DNA of 29,584 bases from the IMG/VR virus record IMGVR_UViG_2537561934_000015; one strand, written 5' to 3'. This DNA comes from a virus (taxonomy: Duplodnaviria > Heunggongvirae > Uroviricota > Caudoviricetes). Below are positions 1 through 28,321 of this stretch, piece after piece. The notes below the pieces were generated by a model that saw only the letters and a list, made by a program, of their open reading frames with translations, was not told the DNA's origin and ran no database searches. The first letter of the stretch is position 1, and each line of letters opens with the position of its first letter. A program made the translations under genes and the position numbers.

Positions 1-216
1 GCGGTTATTCGTGAAAAGGAAGAAACACTGAAACAACGAGTGATCCGCGCGCTGGCGGGGTTTTCGGGTTACGGGCGGGTGATGGTTGTCGGTGGCGGGG
101 CGGAGATTGTGGCACCCGCTATCCGCGAAGCCTGCGGAGTTAATGCGACTTTCATCGCGGACGGGGTGCCACAGTTTGCTCTGGTTAATGGGCTGTACGC
201 AATGGACAAGGAGTAA
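1..216 (+). CDS. parM: ParM-like actin-type plasmid segregation ATPase, C-terminal fragment (5' end outside window)
   Basis: Frame 1 is open from the window edge to TAA at 214-216. The translation ends ...FSGYGRVMVVGGGAEIVAPAIREA...FALVNGLYAMDKE, which matches the recalled C-terminus of R1 ParM/StbA (FSGY..VMVIGGGAE ... LVNGMY). A ParR-like gene follows immediately. Confidence 0.7.
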   Translation, partial: AVIREKEETLKQRVIRALAGFSGYGRVMVVGGGAEIVAPAIREACGVNATFIADGVPQFALVNGLYAMDKE

Positions 217-220
217 ACCA

Positions 221-535
221 ATGACGACTCCAACCAGACGGATAAGTTTCTATCTGAAGCCAGCAGCCGTCAAGAGTGAACGAGAAGCGTGTAATTATCT
301 CGACAGCCTGCCAGCCTCCGAACGCAGCCGCGCGCAACGCGCGGCATTTCTGGCTGGACTGGCGCTTATTAAAAGCGATCCCGCCTTTGCTTACTGGCTG
401 GCTGAATGGCAGGAAGAGGAAGCAATACCACCAAGAAATAACATCCGAAACAAGCATACTGGCACATCTGCAACAGAAAACAGTCACAGTAAGAGCCAGT
501 TAAAAAGGAACATTCAGGAGTTTTTCCCAGAATAA
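221..535 (+). CDS. parR: ParR-like partition adaptor (ribbon-helix-helix centromere-binding protein)
   Basis: ATG at 221 follows AGGAG at 207-211. N-terminus RRISFYLKPAAV...YLDSLPASERSRAQRAAFLAGLALIKSDP aligns by eye with recalled R1 ParR (RRTIAFKLNPDV...TLDSIPQGERSRLNRAALTAGLALYRQDP). Gene order parM then parR matches R1. The six-frame ORF 86-535 is the same frame, extended upstream of the likely start. Confidence 0.7.
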   Translation: MTTPTRRISFYLKPAAVKSEREACNYLDSLPASERSRAQRAAFLAGLALIKSDPAFAYWLAEWQEEEAIPPRNNIRNKHTGTSATENSHSKSQLKRNIQEFFPE

Positions 536-2224: not shown

Positions 2225-3271
2225 TCAGGATGTGGGCTGGGTGTCTAACAGTGCGTAAGGGTTAAAGCGGATCACCTCTTCGCCAAGCCAGTCATTGATG
2301 TGCTTCATGGCCTCCATGACGGGCATCAGCTCGTTAATTGCGTAAACCCGCGCGGCCTTCTCCACATCACCAAACGCACTTTTTTCACCCGGCATCGCCC
2401 CCATCAGTTGCGGCGGAACGCGGTGCGCAGCCAGCACATCATCACGGGATGCCGCCTTAACATTCATGAACTCATCCTTTGCGGTGATCTGCTGGAACGG
2501 CAAAATTTGCACCCCCTCTTTACCCCCGTTAGGCGCATGAATGAGCACGTTTTTAAACGCACCACCACCACGCGCACCCTGTAGCGTTTCTTTCAGGGAG
2601 TCCATGCTTTCGCGGTTTACCTGCGCTGCGCCGATGTAGATGATGCACCCGGCGTGGGATCCGTTGTCGTAATACAGTTTTCTGAACATGTCCGCCGAAT
2701 GAGACAGGCTGGCCGAGAGTAATGCGCCGAGATATTCCGGCATGCCGTAGATTTCCTGGTTAATGTCCGGATTCATCAGGTGGCACACTTTGCCAGGGCG
2801 AAACTGGAACGCGTCCTTGCCATCCTGCACATACCACCATGATTCAAGATCGCTTCCGCGTCGCATGTATTTCGCCAGGGCGTGCCGTAATTTAAGCGGT
2901 TCACCGAGCATATTGCTTCGAAGCTCAAGGAATGCGTTACCGAACACAAACCAGTCCAGCGCCAGCGCCGAGAAATCCTGCCGGGAAAGCAGCGGGTGCG
3001 GAATATAGCAACCGAGCAATACATTGCGCTTAAAGTAAAGCGCAGACTGATGCCAGGACGTTTGCCGGGCAGCTCTTGCCAGACCGTACCAGTCCACCGG
3101 GGTTTCATACCACCGCCCGTTATCAGCACAGTACATATTGTCCAGCAGGTCATGCCCGGTCAGGCGATAAGGACCATCAAATGTGAATGCACTGAGCGAT
3201 GATTCTTTCCTGAGCGCATCAGCGAGATCAATGCGTGAACTCATGCGCACTTTTTTATTTTTTCTGCTCAT
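2225..3271 (-). CDS. Q: Portal protein (P2 gpQ-like)
   Basis: 348-aa ORF on the minus strand, directly downstream of the terminase gene as in P2. Length and position fit gpQ (about 344 aa). Confidence 0.85.
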   Translation of the reverse strand: MSRKNKKVRMSSRIDLADALRKESSLSAFTFDGPYRLTGHDLLDNMYCADNGRWYETPVDWYGLARAARQTSWHQSALYFKRNVLLGCYIPHPLLSRQDFSALALDWFVFGNAFLELRSNMLGEPLKLRHALAKYMRRGSDLESWWYVQDGKDAFQFRPGKVCHLMNPDINQEIYGMPEYLGALLSASLSHSADMFRKLYYDNGSHAGCIIYIGAAQVNRESMDSLKETLQGARGGGAFKNVLIHAPNGGKEGVQILPFQQITAKDEFMNVKAASRDDVLAAHRVPPQLMGAMPGEKSAFGDVEKAARVYAINELMPVMEAMKHINDWLGEEVIRFNPYALLDTQPTS

Positions 3272-5022
3272 CAGAACTCCATAACCGTGAAACGCTCGTT
3301 TTCTCCTTCGCCGCCAATCGGTTCGTTAATGACAGCAAGCATGGTCGCCCACGCAAGGTCGCCGTGGCTGATCCCCCTCGCGCGGTCCGTTTCGTAAGTG
3401 ATAAAGCCGCCCGGTGTTTTCACCTTACGCACGGCGTTAAAGGCCGCGACCAGCTCGCGTTCGGCGCGATCATATTCCCACCGCCCGGCACGCATTATTT
3501 GCAGCATTTTCAGTACCAGCGACCGTTTTGATGACAGCGTGAAGGTGTACGGAATGGCAGCAGGGAAAAACCGTTTCACTATCTGATAAACAGCCTCCCC
3601 GTTCCCGCCCGTCACATCAATGCCGATGTGTTCCACGTTGTAGCGACACGTGAACTCTTCAATGACTCTGGCCTGTTCTTCAAACTCCAGCCCCTGAACG
3701 CGTCGCGTCTCCACCGTTCGAAAACGGCCTCCAGGAACAGCCGGAGGAACCACCACGGACACTGCGCCGCTGTCGCCGTTTCCACTGCTGCCGTTTGCGT
3801 CATACCCAATCCATACCGGACGATTCCCCATCGGGCGGGGAGCAAAAGGTTTCCAGTCTTTCCAGTCGTCGTATCCGTCAACACCGCAGCCAATCAGGAT
3901 ATTCAGGTTAAATGCCGACTCCCCTTCGCGGACAAACTCACACATATAGAGATTGCGGAACTCGTCTTCGGTGTTTTCATCACGAATCTCGTCAATATCG
4001 GTGTGTTTCCAGCCGTGATTAACCACATCTTCCAGCGTGACAATTTGCCGCCACGTCCGGTCAGGGCAGATAAGCCCGTTATGCAGCGTTTTCCAGTCCA
4101 CAGAAAAACGCTGGCGTTTATGCGCGGCCTTTTTCTCGTTCCAGCGGTCGCCGTTCCAGTAGGCGTATGCCTCGTGCGTTTCGGTGGATGGCGTGGAGAA
4201 GTAGGTGCGCCGCAGTCCGCTGAGGGTTGCCATAGCGCCAGCCACCTTGCGCAGTTCAGCAAAGCGACTGACCCAGAAAAATTCATCAAAATAAAAATTG
4301 CCTGTGTAGGACTGTGCCGTCGCAGCAGAAGTACCGAGAAAATGCAGCTCTGCGCCGTTGGAGAGGATGATTTTATCGCCCCCTTTCAGCTCCACATCAA
4401 CTTCAGATGCAGCCTTCTGAATAATGCTTTTAAACTGGAACGCCTGACGACGCGACGCAGACAAAAAAATCTGGTTACGCTGGTAAGGTTGCGCCACATC
4501 GTCACGCAGCGCCATCAGCAGTGCTTCCTGTGCAAAATACCAGGTCGCTCCAATCTGTCGGGATTTCAGGATCATCCTGTTACGTATCCCGGCTTCCCTG
4601 CAAAGTGTCAGGGAGTCAAACCAGCCCCGCTGATGCCACTCCAGCCTGCTGATGATTTTTTCCCGCAGTGCGGCAATCTGTTCCGGCGTGAAATGATTTT
4701 TGAGTTTTTTCGCCCGGCTTTTCTTTCCTGTGGCCGTCGCATCCGGCTGGCCATCATGCAGTTTTTTAAGCTGCCGGGTCAGCAGGTCTATTTCCTTGAA
4801 GTCACCACCTGTTTTATTCTGTTTTTCAGTAAGCTGGATGAGGCGCGCATCGATGGACTGCGTGACACGCTGCACGGGTGGCGTTTCATCCCACTGGTCG
4901 CGTTTTTTCCACGCATAAATCGTGTTCGGGTTTATTCCCATCAGACGTGATATTTCTGCGGGCGGATAACCCTGCCAGTAAAGTTGCCGCGCACGCTGGC
5001 GCACAAAAGCGTCCTGAATCAT
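3271..5022 (-). CDS. P: Terminase large (ATPase) subunit (P2 gpP-like)
   Basis: 583-aa ORF, divergent from O with a 155-bp intergenic region as in P2. Carries a Walker-A-like segment GVDGYDDW...GYDANGSSGNGDSGA. Confidence 0.85.
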   Translation of the reverse strand: MIQDAFVRQRARQLYWQGYPPAEISRLMGINPNTIYAWKKRDQWDETPPVQRVTQSIDARLIQLTEKQNKTGGDFKEIDLLTRQLKKLHDGQPDATATGKKSRAKKLKNHFTPEQIAALREKIISRLEWHQRGWFDSLTLCREAGIRNRMILKSRQIGATWYFAQEALLMALRDDVAQPYQRNQIFLSASRRQAFQFKSIIQKAASEVDVELKGGDKIILSNGAELHFLGTSAATAQSYTGNFYFDEFFWVSRFAELRKVAGAMATLSGLRRTYFSTPSTETHEAYAYWNGDRWNEKKAAHKRQRFSVDWKTLHNGLICPDRTWRQIVTLEDVVNHGWKHTDIDEIRDENTEDEFRNLYMCEFVREGESAFNLNILIGCGVDGYDDWKDWKPFAPRPMGNRPVWIGYDANGSSGNGDSGAVSVVVPPAVPGGRFRTVETRRVQGLEFEEQARVIEEFTCRYNVEHIGIDVTGGNGEAVYQIVKRFFPAAIPYTFTLSSKRSLVLKMLQIMRAGRWEYDRAERELVAAFNAVRKVKTPGGFITYETDRARGISHGDLAWATMLAVINEPIGGEGENERFTVMEF

Positions 5023-15260: not shown

Positions 15261-15737
15261 ATGTCCAGTAAAATATTCTATAGTGCCAGGAATAATACGT
15301 TTTTCTTTGAATCCATGAAACCGGACTATGAAAAATCAGGCGCATGGCCTGACGATTTGGTGGCAGTCACAAACGATATGTATGAAGAGTTTACGGGAAG
15401 ACCGCCAGAGGGAAAGAAGAGAGGCAGTGATGAATCTGGTTTCCCCGCATGGATTGATGTATCAGAACCAGCAACAGAGCAGTTAATCGCATTAAAAGAG
15501 CAGAAGAAAAAGGATTTAGCGGGGATTGCGAACACAGAAATTGCCTGGCGGCAGGATGCTGTTGACGCAGGGATGGCGACAGAAGCAGAAATCACTGTGC
15601 TGGCTGAATGGAAAAAATATCGAGTGCTACTTATGCGTATTGATACATCAACCGAGACGGATATTGAGTGGCCCGCTGTTCCAGACGGACAAAGCGGCAA
15701 AGAGAGCAGTGCAGAGGATGTGAAAACGTCGCTATAA
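15261..15737 (+). CDS. G: Tail fibre assembly chaperone (gpG/Tfa-like)
   Basis: 158-aa ORF immediately after H. A similar gene lies convergently at 15864-16304. Confidence 0.75.
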   Translation: MSSKIFYSARNNTFFFESMKPDYEKSGAWPDDLVAVTNDMYEEFTGRPPEGKKRGSDESGFPAWIDVSEPATEQLIALKEQKKKDLAGIANTEIAWRQDAVDAGMATEAEITVLAEWKKYRVLLMRIDTSTETDIEWPAVPDGQSGKESSAEDVKTSL

Positions 15738-15863: not shown

Positions 15864-16304
15864 TCATTCTGGTTGTTCGGGGAATGTTACCGGCAGGCTG
15901 GAGGTGTCTGTGGATTCGACTTTCTGCGCATAGAGCATCCACTCGGTTAATTTTTGTTTATTCTCGTCGGAAATGACGCCCAGCTGTAGCTGAGAGTCCC
16001 ACAGCTGGGTTTTATCCCTGACGAGCTGCAGCAGGCTCTGCTTTTCATTTTCCGCTTGTTGCCTTTGCTCCTCCTCGGTATAAGTTCGCTTTACCACTAC
16101 GCCATCTTTGAACATCCATTTACCCGAAATGTCAGCACGGCGATTTGCTGTAATATCAGGTAATTCAACGACGCTTGCGCCTTCCGGATTAATTGCTGAA
16201 ACATCCTTTTCAATACAAATAATAACGCCGTTATGGTCATAGACCATTTTCAACGTATCAGGCCGGAAATTCTTTTGTTCCTCATACCAGTTTTTTCCCA
16301 TCAT
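15864..16304 (-). CDS. Alternative tail fibre assembly chaperone (tfa')
   Basis: 146-aa ORF on the minus strand inside the invertible segment, convergent with tfa. Same size class as tfa and in the Mu U' position; similarity to tfa was not checked. Confidence 0.7.
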
Positions 16305-16400
16305 CTGAATAAAGCCATTTGATGTTAAATTGCTTTGTTAGCTGGTATTGCTCTTTTGTTTTAGGATTGCCAGCAGTAATGTTTTTTAAGTGCATCATAA

Positions 16401-17363
16401 TTAAATACTCCCCGCGTTATACCACGTTCCATTAATGCAATACTGAACTGGCCTTGCCTGTGTTGTATCAATTAATTCATCACGGTTTCCGTTAACTGAA
16501 CCCGTAACGACATAACCTGACCTGTCAGACCAGCCGGGACCATTCCATGTCTGAACAGATGACAGACCGCCCAGACGAATACCTGTAATAAACTTTGAGT
16601 TACATTCCGCTTTGGTATATGCACCAACATCTCCCGCAGAGGGCTTGCGGGTCGTGGTGTAAAACTCTGACCAGTTAGCCTCAAATCCATAACCATCACG
16701 CGCTGAACGATAAAAAATACCGCCATTCCTGTAATTCACGCGGAACTGTACGGCAGGGCAACTCCCCGTATTCATATTGAAGTGGAGGATTAATGCTGTT
16801 GCGCCATTGATATCTGCGTTATAAACCCCGCTATTCCAGTTCCAGCCAACAGCTTTATCATTTGCAACCCTGCTTCCTGTTTGCCCTAAAGCAAATGCAG
16901 GCTGCTGGTTTTTCGTGTTGTAGTCTCGTCGCCAGCCAGGAGCATAAGCATCACCATGATTAATATAGGTGAATTGAGCGTTAGTAATTCCGCCGCCGCT
17001 GGACGTGCTCGGCGTGGTAACGCGTATGGTCATTGCGCCGCGAGTGCCAATAACTTCCACCACAGCACCTGCAAGACAAATATTTCCGCAACCTGTATCT
17101 GTAATGACCTTATTATTTGCATAAGCCCATGAGCCTTTGCACATCCAGTAAGGATGGTTAAATGCCCCCTGACTCTCCAGCCACGAAATGAATTGTGCGG
17201 TTGTCCAGGCCTGACTATCGCCACCAATATTCAGCCCTGCACTATATGCGCGGCAGGCCCCAATATTTTTGGTGAAGGTATCTTTTCCCGGAATATCTGC
17301 GCCGTTCTGGTTTTTTTGTAATGCTCCAGAAGCCTGATTTACCGTTTCCTGTAAACCGAGGTT
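16401..17363 (-). CDS. Alternative tail fibre C-terminal cassette (start-less; expressed after inversion by fusion to the H N-terminal part)
   Basis: The minus-strand frame is open from 17363 (a stop lies just upstream) down to the stop at 16401. It begins [16 protein letters not shown]..., matching the H junction ...EYLGLQETVKLASEALS. No start codon at the 5' end, as expected for an Sv'-type cassette. The six-frame track shows only the internal Met at 17144. Confidence 0.8.
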
Positions 17364-17374: not shown

Positions 17375-17425
17375 TCGATTTTGGCACGCATGGCATGATT
17401 GGCGCTTTTAAACAGGAGATCCAGA

Positions 17426-18016
17426 GTGCTGATTGGCTATGTAAGGGTATCAACAAATGACCAGAATACAGACCTGCAACGAAACGCTCTTGTTTGTGCA
17501 GGATGTGAACAAATATTTGAAGATAAATTAAGCGGGACAAAGACAGACCGACCGGGATTAAAACGCGCTTTAAAGCGCCTTCAACAAGGTGACACGCTGG
17601 TTGTCTGGAAACTGGATCGCCTCGGGCGAAGCATGAAACATCTGATTTCTCTCGTCGGGGAACTACGGGAGCGAGGGATTAATTTTCGCAGTCTGACCGA
17701 CAGCATAGATACATCTTCTCCAATGGGGCGTTTTTTCTTCCACGTGATGGGTGCCCTGGCTGAAATGGAACGTGAATTAATTGTAGAGCGTACACTGGCC
17801 GGTCTGGCAGCAGCACGCGCACAAGGACGCACAGGCGGACGTCGCCCGAAGCTGACAAAAGAACAGAATGAGCAAATAGCAAGGCTGATTAAAAACGGGC
17901 ACGACAGAAAACAACTGGCAATAATTTACGGCATTGGTACATCGACGATTTATCGTTACCACCCCGCAGGAGAATCAAGCGGAACAATTGAGAAGAGTAA
18001 ACAAAATAACCGCTAA
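17426..18016 (+). CDS. Serine DNA invertase, Gin/Pin/Cin/Hin family
   Basis: From GTG 17426 (AGGAG 7 nt upstream) the protein reads (M)LIGYVRVSTNDQNTDLQRNAL...VVWKLDRLGRSMKHL..., near-identical to the recalled Gin/Pin N-terminus with the catalytic Ser in VRVST. The six-frame track start at 17399 is upstream of the likely start. Confidence 0.9.
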   Translation: MLIGYVRVSTNDQNTDLQRNALVCAGCEQIFEDKLSGTKTDRPGLKRALKRLQQGDTLVVWKLDRLGRSMKHLISLVGELRERGINFRSLTDSIDTSSPMGRFFFHVMGALAEMERELIVERTLAGLAAARAQGRTGGRRPKLTKEQNEQIARLIKNGHDRKQLAIIYGIGTSTIYRYHPAGESSGTIEKSKQNNR

Positions 18017-23793: not shown

Positions 23794-24903
23794 ATGACCG
23801 ACACCACCATGCAATTGCTCAGTCAGAGCACAGACCCCGTGAAAATGCCGGATTTTGATATTCTCGCGGAGGGGGAAACGCTGTCCGGTCGTGGCAGAGC
23901 GCCTGATGAGTCTGTCACTGACCGACAACCGGGATTTGAAGCGGTACCAGCTCACCATCACGCTGGATGATGCGGATGGTCAGTTGCAGCTACCGCCACG
24001 GGGCGCGCGCCTGACGGTTCTCATTGGCTGGAAAGGAGAACCGCTGACAGAAAAAGGCACTTACATTGTTGATGAAATCGCTCACGAAGGACCGCCGGAC
24101 AGGCTGACGGTTTCAGCCAGAAGCGCAGATTTTCGGGATGAATTTAACGTTAAACGTGAGGTGTCCTGGCATGATGTGACCGTTGAGCGCGTGGTATCCG
24201 CCATCGCTCATCGGTATGGTCTGAAACCGCAAATCAGCGAAATGCTGATGGATATCGAAATCGACCACGCCGACCAGACCGAAGAAAGCGACATGTCCTT
24301 CCTTACGCGCATGGCGGAAATGCTGGGCGCAATCACTACGGTAAAAAGCGGTAATCTGTTATTCATCATGCCAGGTGGTGGCGTGAACGCACTGGGCCAG
24401 CCGTTGCCATCGTTCGCCATCACACGCAGCAGCGGCGATCGCCATCAGTTCCGCATTGCTGACCGCGAAGCGTATACGGGGGTACGCGCTTACTGGCTTG
24501 ATCTTAATTACGGGAAAAGAAAAAAGTCAGCGTGAAACGCCGCAAACCGCCAAAACCCAAAAAGGAGAAAAGCAGCAGCCGTGAAGGTGATTATATGGAA
24601 GGCGCAGAAGGCAATGTGTTTGTGTTACGCAAGACTTATCAGAACGAGCAGGCAGCAAGACGCGCAGCGGCGGCAAAATGGCAGCAGCTACAACGCGGAG
24701 CCGCATCATTCTCCATCACGCTGGCGCGTGGACACGCAGAACTCTATCCCGAAATGCATGGCACGGTGAAAGGCTTCAAAAGTGACATCGACAATCAGGA
24801 CTGGATTATTGCAAAAGCTGAGCACACCATTGATAACAGCGGCTTTACCACGCAGCTTGAGCTTGAGGCAAAAATCCCGGAATGGATAGCAGAAACAGAG
24901 TGA
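23794..24903 (+). pseudogene. D: Tail/baseplate hub gene D (P2 gpD-like), split over three frame segments
   Basis: Frame 1 from ATG 23794 (ribosome-binding site AGGGAGGGA) reads MTDTTMQLLSQSTDPVKMPDFDILAEGETLSGR and then goes out of frame. Frame 2 (open 23843-24535) carries the central part VAERLMSLSLTDNRD...YWLDLNYGKRKK. Frame 1 again (open 24508-24903) carries the C-terminus ...EGNVFVLRKTYQ...WQQLQRGAASFS...GFKSDIDNQDWII...GFTTQLELE. The frame changes lie near 23880-23895 and 24510-24530. Confidence 0.75.
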
Positions 24904-25023
24904 GCAACTTAGACATATTAGCTCAAACTTAAACTGGCAAGTTTACAGTATAGAATTAAACATAAACGACGGTCCGCTCCGTGTCAGAAGCGGACTTTGT
25001 CATCCCTATGTAAGGTTGATTGC

Positions 25024-26046
25024 TTAATACGCATTTAATTTAAATTTGTATTTGCCTTCTATGTAATGGATAAATTCAATTATGCTTTTTTCTATCGCAT
25101 CTAATATATGAATATATCCATCCCGATTTAAGGTCCTATCCAACTCAAAGTGATGAACTATCCCATGTCTATATTGTATGATTTCAGAAATTCGATTCTC
25201 AAGAAAATCAACTGATTTTCCAATTCTTTTTTTCTTATAAAGAATCGCTCTCACATCTATATCCAGCCACTCTTTATATGCTTTGTTTAGGTGGGTTAAG
25301 TTTTGAAAAGTGTAATTTCTTGCAATAACACTTTCTATTGAAATATTTCCTTTCTCTATCTCAAGCAGAATATCAAAATCAACTTTTTGCTTATACGATG
25401 TTCTTTTTGCTATTGCGAAAGGATCGTACTTTATAAGTATTTGAAAAGCTCTAGAGAAAAAGTATTCAAACATAGCAACCGCAAAAGGTACTAATCCATT
25501 ATATATAACTCTACTGGGATCCATACATTGCATGTAATCAAAGTATTCGGATAAGCCGCCATCTTCCGGTAGGTTTAATTTAATAGAAGGTTCAGGTAAG
25601 GCATGTTTAACAGCGGAAATCTCATGATGGACATGATTAAATATTGAAGAAATGCCACGACTGATCGGACTACTAGAATCCTTCCATAGAGGAGCGTACC
25701 TATTTTTCCCATAATCACCTATAAGTGTTCCACCAAAAAGACTCCTTGCGCCTTTTAGAACATCATTAAGCATTTTTACATCATGCCAACTAGCGCTATA
25801 TAAATTACGCACATGCAATGCCCATTTATTACCAGATATGTGTAATTCGTCATTTGAAACAGGATATATATCAGCCGAAACTCCATCTGTAGATTTGAAG
25901 TCCGTATCATCAAACCAAGAGTAATTCAACGTTCCTTGGGGCCATTCCCACAAATGTTTACACCTTTTAAAACCTAAATTTTCAAGGTAATTTTTAAGTT
26001 CGTTTCTAGTTGCTTTTTTAGGGTACAGCGTTATATCTCTTCCCAT
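25024..26046 (-). CDS. Hypothetical 340-aa protein, AT-rich cargo gene inserted between D and ogr; C-terminal HEPN-like R-x4-H motif
   Basis: Long ORF with AGGTGA ribosome-binding site, visibly AT-rich against GC-rich structural genes, and on the opposite strand to its neighbours. C-terminal region ...ENRISEIIQYRHGIVHHFELD... contains R-x4-H. Confidence 0.7.
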   Translation of the reverse strand: MGRDITLYPKKATRNELKNYLENLGFKRCKHLWEWPQGTLNYSWFDDTDFKSTDGVSADIYPVSNDELHISGNKWALHVRNLYSASWHDVKMLNDVLKGARSLFGGTLIGDYGKNRYAPLWKDSSSPISRGISSIFNHVHHEISAVKHALPEPSIKLNLPEDGGLSEYFDYMQCMDPSRVIYNGLVPFAVAMFEYFFSRAFQILIKYDPFAIAKRTSYKQKVDFDILLEIEKGNISIESVIARNYTFQNLTHLNKAYKEWLDIDVRAILYKKKRIGKSVDFLENRISEIIQYRHGIVHHFELDRTLNRDGYIHILDAIEKSIIEFIHYIEGKYKFKLNAY

Positions 26047-26237
26047 GCTTTATTCACCTGATATACAATATTTTAAATTTTAACTATTATGAACGTATGA
26101 ATTTTCACATTGGATGTATGGAAGTTCAACAACTATTGAAAGTTCAATTTTCACTCTTCGCACAGAGCGAGCTGTTAGTTGGAATTAGGGATCGTACAAT
26201 CTAGAATAGCGGCAACACCACGTTAAGGGAGGTCGCT

Positions 26238-27090: not shown

Positions 27091-27423
27091 ATGGCATTAA
27101 TCAAATGTCCTGAATGCCAGAAAGAGGTGAGCGATTCAGCATTGTATTGCCCTGCTTGCGGTAAACAAATAAAAAAACTTAAGCGTTCATTTTTTGGAAA
27201 GCTCATTAAGTGGATATTTATATTATTTAATATTTTTATGATCTATACGCTTTTAGTTGGACTGGGAGGCACTAGTGAAATAATAAATAATGCTACATCC
27301 GATGCCGAAAAAGCCGGTGCAGTTATTGGTACAGGCTTAGGTTTAATTACCATTGGAAGTTTATGGGTTATTGGCGATATCATTATCGGAATTTTAGTAT
27401 TTCTTACTAAACCAAAAGGATAA
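27091..27423 (+). CDS. Zinc-ribbon membrane protein (110 aa)
   Basis: CPEC...CPAC zinc ribbon at the N-terminus, then two hydrophobic helices. Ribosome-binding site AGGAGG. AT-rich. Confidence 0.6.
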   Translation: MALIKCPECQKEVSDSALYCPACGKQIKKLKRSFFGKLIKWIFILFNIFMIYTLLVGLGGTSEIINNATSDAEKAGAVIGTGLGLITIGSLWVIGDIIIGILVFLTKPKG

Positions 27424-27427
27424 CAAA

Positions 27428-28321
27428 ATGAAAAATATAATTTTTTCTATAGGTGCATCATTTATATCAATTAGTGTACTGCCTGTTCACGCAGCAACTG
27501 AACATAATAACTTCAATGCAGTACTCCAGTGCCGAGCAATAGAAAATAATAAAGACAGACTTTCTTGTTACGATAAGTCAATACAACCGACTCGAACGAA
27601 AGTTGCTGAAAAATTCGAAAGCAGAGATCAATGCCCTGATGAGAAAGATGATGACAGACGTTTATCTTGTTATGATCGTTTTTTTTCTCCAACATTTACT
27701 CCATCTGTAAACTCAAAATCTAAAACGGAAAAGCCAGTAACAACAGAGGCTCAGCAACCAAATCTTTCTGAGATATCTAAATGCCGAGCAGAAAATGATA
27801 AAGAAGCCAGACTAAACTGCTACGATAAACTATTCCCACAGGATAAAGCTGTTCAAGCTGAATCAAAATTAGAGAAAGCCACAGATGTAGGAAAATGGCA
27901 CACATCCATTACTACATCGCCAATTGATGATTCGAAAAATGTAATTTTATCGTTAGAAAGTGATGATTATATCAGAACTCCATTTGGAGAAGCGGTTACT
28001 CCCACTCTGTTTATAGCTTGCCGAGAAAAGAAAACCGAAGTATTTCTTAGTTGGGATGTATATTTAGGCCTTGAACAAACCAGCATGCTTTATCGTCTTG
28101 ATAAACAGAAAGCAGTTGAGCGAAACTGGCTAGTATCTACAGATACAAAGGCTGTTTTTTATAAAGGTAATGACATTGATTTCATCCGAAAACTAGCCAA
28201 CTCAAACAAAATGTATACAAAAATAACTCCTTATAATGAGAGCCCTGTAAGTGCAACTTTCAATTTAAACGGCCTGTCAAACGCGCTAAAACCACTTCAA
28301 GCTGCTTGTAACTGGAAATAG
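27428..28321 (+). CDS. Secreted repeat protein (297 aa) with signal peptide and three RL(S/N)CYD motifs
   Basis: N-terminal signal peptide MKNIIFSIGASFISISVLPVHA. Repeats DRLSCYDK, RRLSCYDR and ARLNCYDK, followed by a C-terminal domain. Starts 4 nt after the zinc-ribbon gene, so probably co-transcribed. Confidence 0.6.
   Translation: MKNIIFSIGASFISISVLPVHAATEHNNFNAVLQCRAIENNKDRLSCYDKSIQPTRTKVAEKFESRDQCPDEKDDDRRLSCYDRFFSPTFTPSVNSKSKTEKPVTTEAQQPNLSEISKCRAENDKEARLNCYDKLFPQDKAVQAESKLEKATDVGKWHTSITTSPIDDSKNVILSLESDDYIRTPFGEAVTPTLFIACREKKTEVFLSWDVYLGLEQTSMLYRLDKQKAVERNWLVSTDTKAVFYKGNDIDFIRKLANSNKMYTKITPYNESPVSATFNLNGLSNALKPLQAACNWK

Follow-up and report, generated by a model that had tools for sequence, protein, structure and literature searches.

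A predicted ParM/ParR segregation module between gene A and the cos-proximal hotspot of P88-like prophages, with a candidate two-palindrome centromere

A close point of comparison for the module considered here is ParMRC (StbA/StbB) of plasmids R1/R100. The R1 adaptor ParR binds DNA through its N-terminus and the actin-like ParM through its C-terminal tip, and the R1 centromere parC consists of ten 11-bp iterons flanking the promoter. A phage-borne counterpart is known from the Corynebacterium glutamicum prophage CGP3, whose AlpC/AlpA/alpS system comprises an actin-like ATPase and a DNA-binding adaptor (PMC4446434, PMC5539076); the adaptor attaches to DNA upstream of the operon that encodes it, and the system is induced early; without it the circular phage DNA does not replicate efficiently (PMC4446434). 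In the P2-like phages of E. coli, the segment between gpA and gpQ is a hotspot that houses old, tin and many defence systems, and a “putative plasmid partitioning system” has been reported there in about a quarter of these phages (Rousset et al. 2022, PMC9122126). Phage P88 and RefSeq genomes annotate the two genes as parM and “partition protein”. In view of these annotations and of the report by Rousset et al. (2022), the feature is already known, and a literature search for functional work on parMR in P88 or PhiSM yielded annotation-level mentions only. The additions made here are computational: conservation across genera, estimates of selection, a two-palindrome candidate centromere and a hotspot boundary that falls inside parR.

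The window, by which the whole analysed stretch of 29,584 nucleotides is meant (IMG/VR record IMGVR_UViG_2537561934_000015), opens within parM. The elements of the partition unit that it contains are as follows:

1–216, + strand: 3' end of parM, the last 71 codons and the TAA stop in frame 1; the gene is cut by the window edge
208–213, + strand: AAGGAG, predicted ribosome-binding site of parR, inside the last parM codons; read from the sequence
221–535, + strand: parR (stbB family; PF10784), complete from ATG to TAA, 104 aa
about 221–409, + strand: N-terminal part of ParR, predicted ribbon-helix-helix
about 410–493, + strand: variable linker of ParR
about 494–532, + strand: conserved C-terminal tip of ParR, ...KRNIQEFFPE
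541–571, + strand: predicted intrinsic terminator at the end of the parMR unit; stem-loop AAACACCCTTCACGGGTGTTT, then a run of T

Translation of positions 1–216 in frame 1 gives AVIREKEETLKQRVIRALAGFSGYGRVMVVGGGAEIVAPAIREACGVNATFIADGVPQFALVNGLYAMDKE, which includes the adenosine-binding motif GGGAE. This fragment matches the ParM C-terminal domain (Pfam PF21523, E=9.3e-24, profile positions 92–159 of 159), and all 71 of its residues are those of phage P88 ParM. The complete gene has 319 codons in relatives, from which its 5' three-quarters and the upstream repeats, situated to the left of the window, were read. The closest reference used for this purpose was the E. coli chromosome L001, 97% identical to the first 2.2 kb of the window. 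Its full-length ParM aligns over residues 2–316 with structures of R1 ParM (1MWK and others) at about 50% identity (E=8e-93), keeps the phosphate and adenosine motifs DDGSTNIK, DLGGTTLD and GGGAE, and matches PHROG 691, “partition protein” (E=4e-90). The ParR sequence matches PF10784, Plasmid_stab_B (StbB/ParR; E=3.7e-26), and PHROG 2515, “partition protein” (E=3e-48), and shows a weak match to the pB171 ParR structure 2JD3 (E=2e-3). Profile searches thus matched both proteins to the ParM/StbA and ParR families, and an earlier, sequence-only reading, according to which the window opens in an R1-type ParM-like ATPase gene followed by a ParR-like adaptor, is borne out. The parR start codon lies 4 nt past the parM stop, a gap that suggests translational coupling. 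The terminator scan was run on L001, in which positions 15541–15561 correspond to 541–561 of the window. Judged from the sequence, positions 1–535 almost certainly belong to a DNA-segregation operon of type II (ParM/ParR), of which they form the distal end.

The alignment of phage and plasmid ParR members shows conservation of the strand RRISFYLKP, of the N-terminal helix QRAAFLAGLAL and of the N-x4-F-P tip. The tip residues N97, F102 and P103 are invariant and common to plasmid ParRs; the extreme C-terminus, N-I-x-x-L/F-F-P, is kept even in plasmid pETEC_35 and phage D6, while the linker varies. Since the N-terminus and the tip are both conserved, the two ends needed for coupling DNA to the filament would, by analogy with R1, have been retained.

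The genomic surroundings of the pair are those of a phage. The late region is 93–97% identical to P88-group genomes, has the gene order of NC_026014 and presents the P2-type late order Q, P, O, N, M, L ... tail genes, D and ogr. The final open reading frame of the window is the chromosomal gene flk, which is followed in relatives by yfcJ and fabB. Because the late region ends in chromosomal flk, the window is a P88-like (Xuanwuvirus, Peduoviridae) prophage integrated in the E. coli chromosome. In L001 and in P88 (NC_026014) the genes are arranged in the order int, C, cox, small early genes, gpA, parM, parR, variable small genes, Q, P, O, N, M; in the gene order of the relatives cos falls between the variable cargo and Q. 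The left neighbour of parM is phage gene A in all relatives, and an integrase is kept in every relative inspected. Of 5426 complete E. coli genomes, 1304 have the gpA–parM–parR block, at 1442 chromosomal places and on plasmids at 2; ST131, O157:H7, O104:H4 and ETEC H10407 genomes are among the carriers in the matches listed. With its flk end and with 1442 of 1444 places chromosomal, the window is not a non-integrated plasmid replicon of the phage-plasmid kind. Rfam and tRNA scans of the window returned nothing, and no match to the P2 cos 19-mer was found with 3 mismatches allowed.

The region between parR and the packaging genes is divided as follows:

410–1765, no strand: variable cos-proximal hotspot segment, starting inside parR, with a promoter-like site and two ORFs
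845–1123, + strand: hotspot ORF, 92 aa
1190–1477, + strand: hotspot ORF, 95 aa
1766–2224, no strand: conserved non-coding stretch next to cos, ahead of the portal gene, 93–96% identical to P88-group genomes; context, outside the par unit
2225–3271, – strand: gpQ portal, from the ORF list and the annotation of relatives; context
3271–5022, – strand: gpP large terminase, from the ORF list and the annotation of relatives; context

The pair had been placed directly left of the P2-like packaging genes. The side is right but not the adjacency, as 1.69 kb separate the parR stop (535) from the gpQ stop (2225). Similarly, the proposal that a P2-like element carries the partition genes holds, as P88, the 1304 genomes of E. 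coli and members of other genera all show the order gpA–parM–parR–cargo–Q–P. Unlike old or tin, however, these genes are no variable cargo; the module they form is conserved and borders the variable hotspot on its gpA side. Nor is a partition system unexpected in this integrating peduovirus; it is a hallmark of the P88 group, as noted by Rousset et al. (2022, PMC9122126).

Homology of the window to most relatives breaks at about position 409 (parR codon 63), because the ParR linker varies while both ends of the protein stay conserved, and picks up again at about 1766–1773. The break lies inside parR, so that the cos-proximal hotspot of the P2-like phages effectively begins within this gene. 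There are two deep parR alleles, the window type and the P88 type, which are 52% identical; the window type is the rarer. Between the types, codons 1–63 show dS of 0.6–0.8 and dN/dS of 0.3–0.4, and within one type dN/dS is 0.03–0.10. In parM the difference is only 1%, with dS of 0.04–0.19.

The two hotspot ORFs match PHROGs with no assigned function (3941, 33929, 32103) and gave no Pfam, NCBIfam or PADLOC match. The 92-aa protein contains Cys/His residues suggestive of a zinc finger. Given the locus, the two ORFs may constitute an uncharacterised exclusion or defence pair. The non-coding stretch at 572–844, past the parR terminator, contains nested ATCGAT-containing palindromes (582–635), a strong promoter-like site TTGACA-16-TAGGAT (640–667) and a perfect 11-bp hairpin, CGCCCCAATAG...CTATTGGGGCG (713–740); placed ahead of the first cargo ORF, it looks like the operator, promoter and leader of the cargo genes. 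The ATCGAT-rich palindromes were also considered as a centromere downstream of parR. This candidate was rejected, as the palindromes belong to a variable segment that is absent from P88, where only 63 bp follow parR, and lie beside the strong promoter of the cargo ORF.

Further features were noted elsewhere in the prophage. Tail gene D (Phage_GPD; 23855–24903) is split into two overlapping ORFs of 226 and 123 aa, which reflects either a sequencing error or a frameshift, the latter leaving a possibly defective prophage; the gene is likewise fragmented in the relatives L003 and L004. Between gene D and ogr, positions 24914–26201 are a 1.29-kb insertion with respect to the P88-like genome L004. 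It encodes a 340-aa ORF (25024–26046, – strand) with a weak RiboL-PSP-HEPN match (E=1e-4), and may serve as a second site for cargo or defence. Positions 27091–28321, between ogr/hok and flk, hold genes for a zinc-ribbon protein and for a VasI/TagO-like protein (type VI secretion-associated), which may represent prophage-end cargo; a VasI-family protein is given as phage ORF1 in the PhiSM paper. A DNA invertase gene (Resolvase and HTH_7; 17399–18016) stands beside inverted copies of tail-fibre/assembly genes (15864–17144, – strand), and, as in P88, the arrangement resembles a host-range switch of the Mu Gin kind.

The distribution of ParM separates the phage proteins from those of plasmids. 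Among 72,556 plasmids, all ParMs outside P88-like prophages are at most 53% identical to the phage protein. In 50,697 phage records, a ParM homologue was found only in 14 Xuanwuvirus-type genomes (at least 95% identical) and in the phage-plasmid D6 (48%). A search of 5.8 billion proteins returned intermediates at 54–62% identity, and a GTDB genome scan with ParM returned three close loci only. On these comparisons the phage ParMs form a clade of their own, apart from the plasmid ParMs. P2-like prophages of Hafnia, Plesiomonas and Serratia encode ParMs of 59–62% identity, on contigs that carry Phage_GPA, parM, Plasmid_stab_B and a few variable genes, then portal and terminase. The same synteny across genera with a diverged ParM indicates that the module is old in this branch of the P2 family. 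In E. coli, Salmonella and E. albertii copies, parM dN/dS is 0.01–0.13 at dS up to 0.2, and the protein is thus maintained by strong purifying selection. Intact 319-aa copies run to thousands (clusters of 4287 and 1308 members), and the plaque-forming phages P88 and PhiSM retain the module. The gene is frameshifted in UMNF18, and the P88-like genome L079 (5089–6395) has lost parMR by a natural deletion: its homology stops 50 nt into parM, and the repeats upstream are kept. Taken together, parMR is evidently a resident, vertically inherited module of P88-like phages, located between gene A and the cos-proximal hotspot.

Just before parM, L001 and P88 carry two 42-nt direct repeats that are 73 nt apart. 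Each repeat holds a 20-bp palindrome, ACGGGAyTnnnrAATCCCGT, situated 34 and 107 nt upstream of parM in an upstream region of about 145 bp; no further copy of the motif occurs in the prophage and none in the window. Scanning of IMG/VR with the motif gave 120 loci, in 112 of which parM starts 34 and/or 107 nt (within 2 nt) past a copy. In the remainder, six loci end too near the motif to be judged, one is parMR-deleted, and the small contigs L018 and L075 have neither gpA nor parM. In seven enterobacterial repeat copies the stems are nearly invariant and the loop bases vary. Analogous GGGA...CCC elements, 72–73 nt apart and with the proximal copy 52–59 nt before the start codon, are present in Hafnia and Plesiomonas; the Serratia relative has a different repeat design without the same palindrome layout. 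In pETEC_35 and D6, arrays of short repeats occupy intergenic regions of more than 250 bp upstream of parM (265 bp in D6).

The position of the repeats relative to gene A differs between genomes. In P88-type genomes (L001 14114–14228) the gpA frame runs through the first repeat and stops between the two, and in genomes with a P2-type gpA (L069 6981–7095) the same 145 bp are wholly intergenic. The gpA of L069 and L093 is a different allele (30–39% identity), and both repeats are intergenic there. Homology of these two genomes to L001 starts exactly at the first repeat (L001 14113–14115) and stops within parR (15427–15430). These limits show that the repeats are part of the par module, not of gene A. 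The two palindromes are proposed as a candidate minimal two-site parC. Both also score as minus-strand intrinsic terminators, so that a function in transcription could replace or accompany that of a centromere.

The autoregulated promoter expected within the parC of a type II system was not detected. A consensus scan of the interval between gene A and parM found no sigma-70-like promoter, although a weak or non-consensus one may be present, and no plus-strand terminator; the interval contains a conserved TTAATCAA box only. With neither a sigma-70 promoter nor a same-strand terminator between the two genes, parMR would be co-expressed with the early replication operon by read-through from gene A. 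P2-type replication yields monomeric circles, which are the packaging substrate, and such circles would be a plausible substrate of ParMR after induction or infection. In the mechanism favoured here, ParR dimers would bind the two 20-bp palindromes through their ribbon-helix-helix N-termini, the conserved C-terminal tip would capture the ends of ATP-driven ParM filaments, and the growing filaments would push circular phage genomes apart. Once a prophage is induced or a cell infected, ParMR would in this manner spread and position the monomeric circles while they are extrachromosomal. The inferred parts of this scheme are the binding to DNA, the stage of expression and the advantage for the phage. 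Considered jointly, the identity and context of the pair and the general mechanism, the segregation of extrachromosomal circular phage genomes by ParMR, are probably correct. Action in the lytic phase, taken as a claim of its own, has somewhat less than an even chance. The full reading, that ParMR is a phage cytoskeleton with a two-palindrome centromere, co-expressed with gpA, which spreads or positions monomeric circles for replication and packaging rather than maintaining a plasmid, is put forward tentatively, with a probability of roughly 0.35. On this reading, the recombination boundary of the defence hotspot would fall within the linker of parR.

Its main rival is stable plasmid lysogeny, suggested in passing by Rousset et al. 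(2022, PMC9122126), in which P88-like phages would use ParMR to maintain themselves as low-copy plasmids, like D6 and P1. A circular PLSDB record of 34,461 bp (NZ_CP148288), deposited as a plasmid, does contain the whole of a P88-like genome, closed at the attP junction, and the phage-plasmid D6 partitions with a homologous ParM (48% identity). However, this circle is the sole stand-alone copy in 72,556 plasmid records, a phage 99.9% identical to it sits integrated in another strain, the relatives inspected retain their integrase, and only two of the 1444 places found in the complete E. coli genomes lie off the chromosome. P2 replication needs gpA from the early operon, which is repressed in the lysogen, so a repressed episome would not replicate; the lack of a detectable promoter proper to parMR also speaks against plasmid lysogeny, which we consider unlikely, if still the nearest competitor. 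The sequence-only reading had gone further in this direction and allowed that the late region might lie in a plasmid backbone, with parMR as the plasmid's own genes. The family assignment favours this, ParM and ParR being typical plasmid genes, but the right end of the window is flk, with the yfcJ–fabB neighbourhood in relatives, the left neighbour of parM is gene A, and the gene order is that of a phage. Together with the chromosomal places, these facts refute the plasmid backbone, and the replicon is not a plasmid but the E. coli chromosome with its integrated prophage.

Exclusion or defence would be another use of the pair, ParMR hindering incoming plasmids, phage-plasmids or phages through incompatibility of centromeres or filaments. 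Its place at the gpA–gpQ hotspot, the home of old, tin and many defence systems, accords with this, as do the two deep parR alleles (dS 0.6–0.8 against 0.04–0.19 for parM), which would be expected of an often-exchanged locus. Against it, ParM, ParR and the two downstream ORFs have no PADLOC match, the module is conserved in place and sequence across genera while the hotspot cargo turns over, the linkage of cis repeats to it speaks for the DNA of the phage itself as the target, and co-polymerisation with plasmid ParMs would be unlikely at identities of at most 53%; an exclusion role therefore appears improbable. More improbable again is a decaying remnant without current function. The frameshift in UMNF18, the deletion in L079 and the split gene D of a possibly defective prophage would suit it, but the parM dN/dS of 0.01–0.13, the thousands of intact 319-aa copies and the retention of the module in plaque-forming P88 and PhiSM are contrary to decay. 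The segregation of extrachromosomal phage circles by ParMR remains the preferred reading.

About a quarter of sequenced E. coli strains hold an actin-like segregation module inside an integrated P2-family prophage. If ParMR organises replicating phage circles, the precedent of CGP3 AlpAC would reach the best-studied phage–host system and gain a tractable model; were the cytoskeleton reading true, a model-phage family of E. coli would for the first time be found to have such a system. If ParMR supports an episomal state instead, the line between integrating phages and phage-plasmids would blur.

With ParMRC of R1/R100 the P88-like module shares the order parM–parR and the tight coupling of the two genes, and its ParM aligns end to end; the ParR follows the same three-part plan of ribbon-helix-helix, linker and tip, but is only distantly related in sequence. 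Major differences concern the location, right after gene A of an integrating P2-family phage, and the upstream region, which spans only about 145 bp and has, in place of the multi-iteron parC of R1, two palindromes at a distance of 73 nt and no detected promoter of its own. The P1-like phage-plasmid D6, the only other phage record, has StbA/StbB-type genes, a ParM of 48% identity followed by a ParR homologue; in contrast to the integrating P88-like phages, it is a true plasmid prophage with a repeat array upstream of parM. AlpC/AlpA of CGP3 may, by analogy, be the best functional model for P88-like ParMR, although AlpC belongs to another actin-like family with no detectable sequence relationship, and the host is Gram-positive and the phage of another type. 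The parM/parR pairs of P88 (NC_026014, gp17–gp18) and of the Citrobacter phage PhiSM are the same module, at the same locus and in the same gene order, and compared to P88 the window carries the rarer, 52% identical parR allele and other hotspot cargo downstream.
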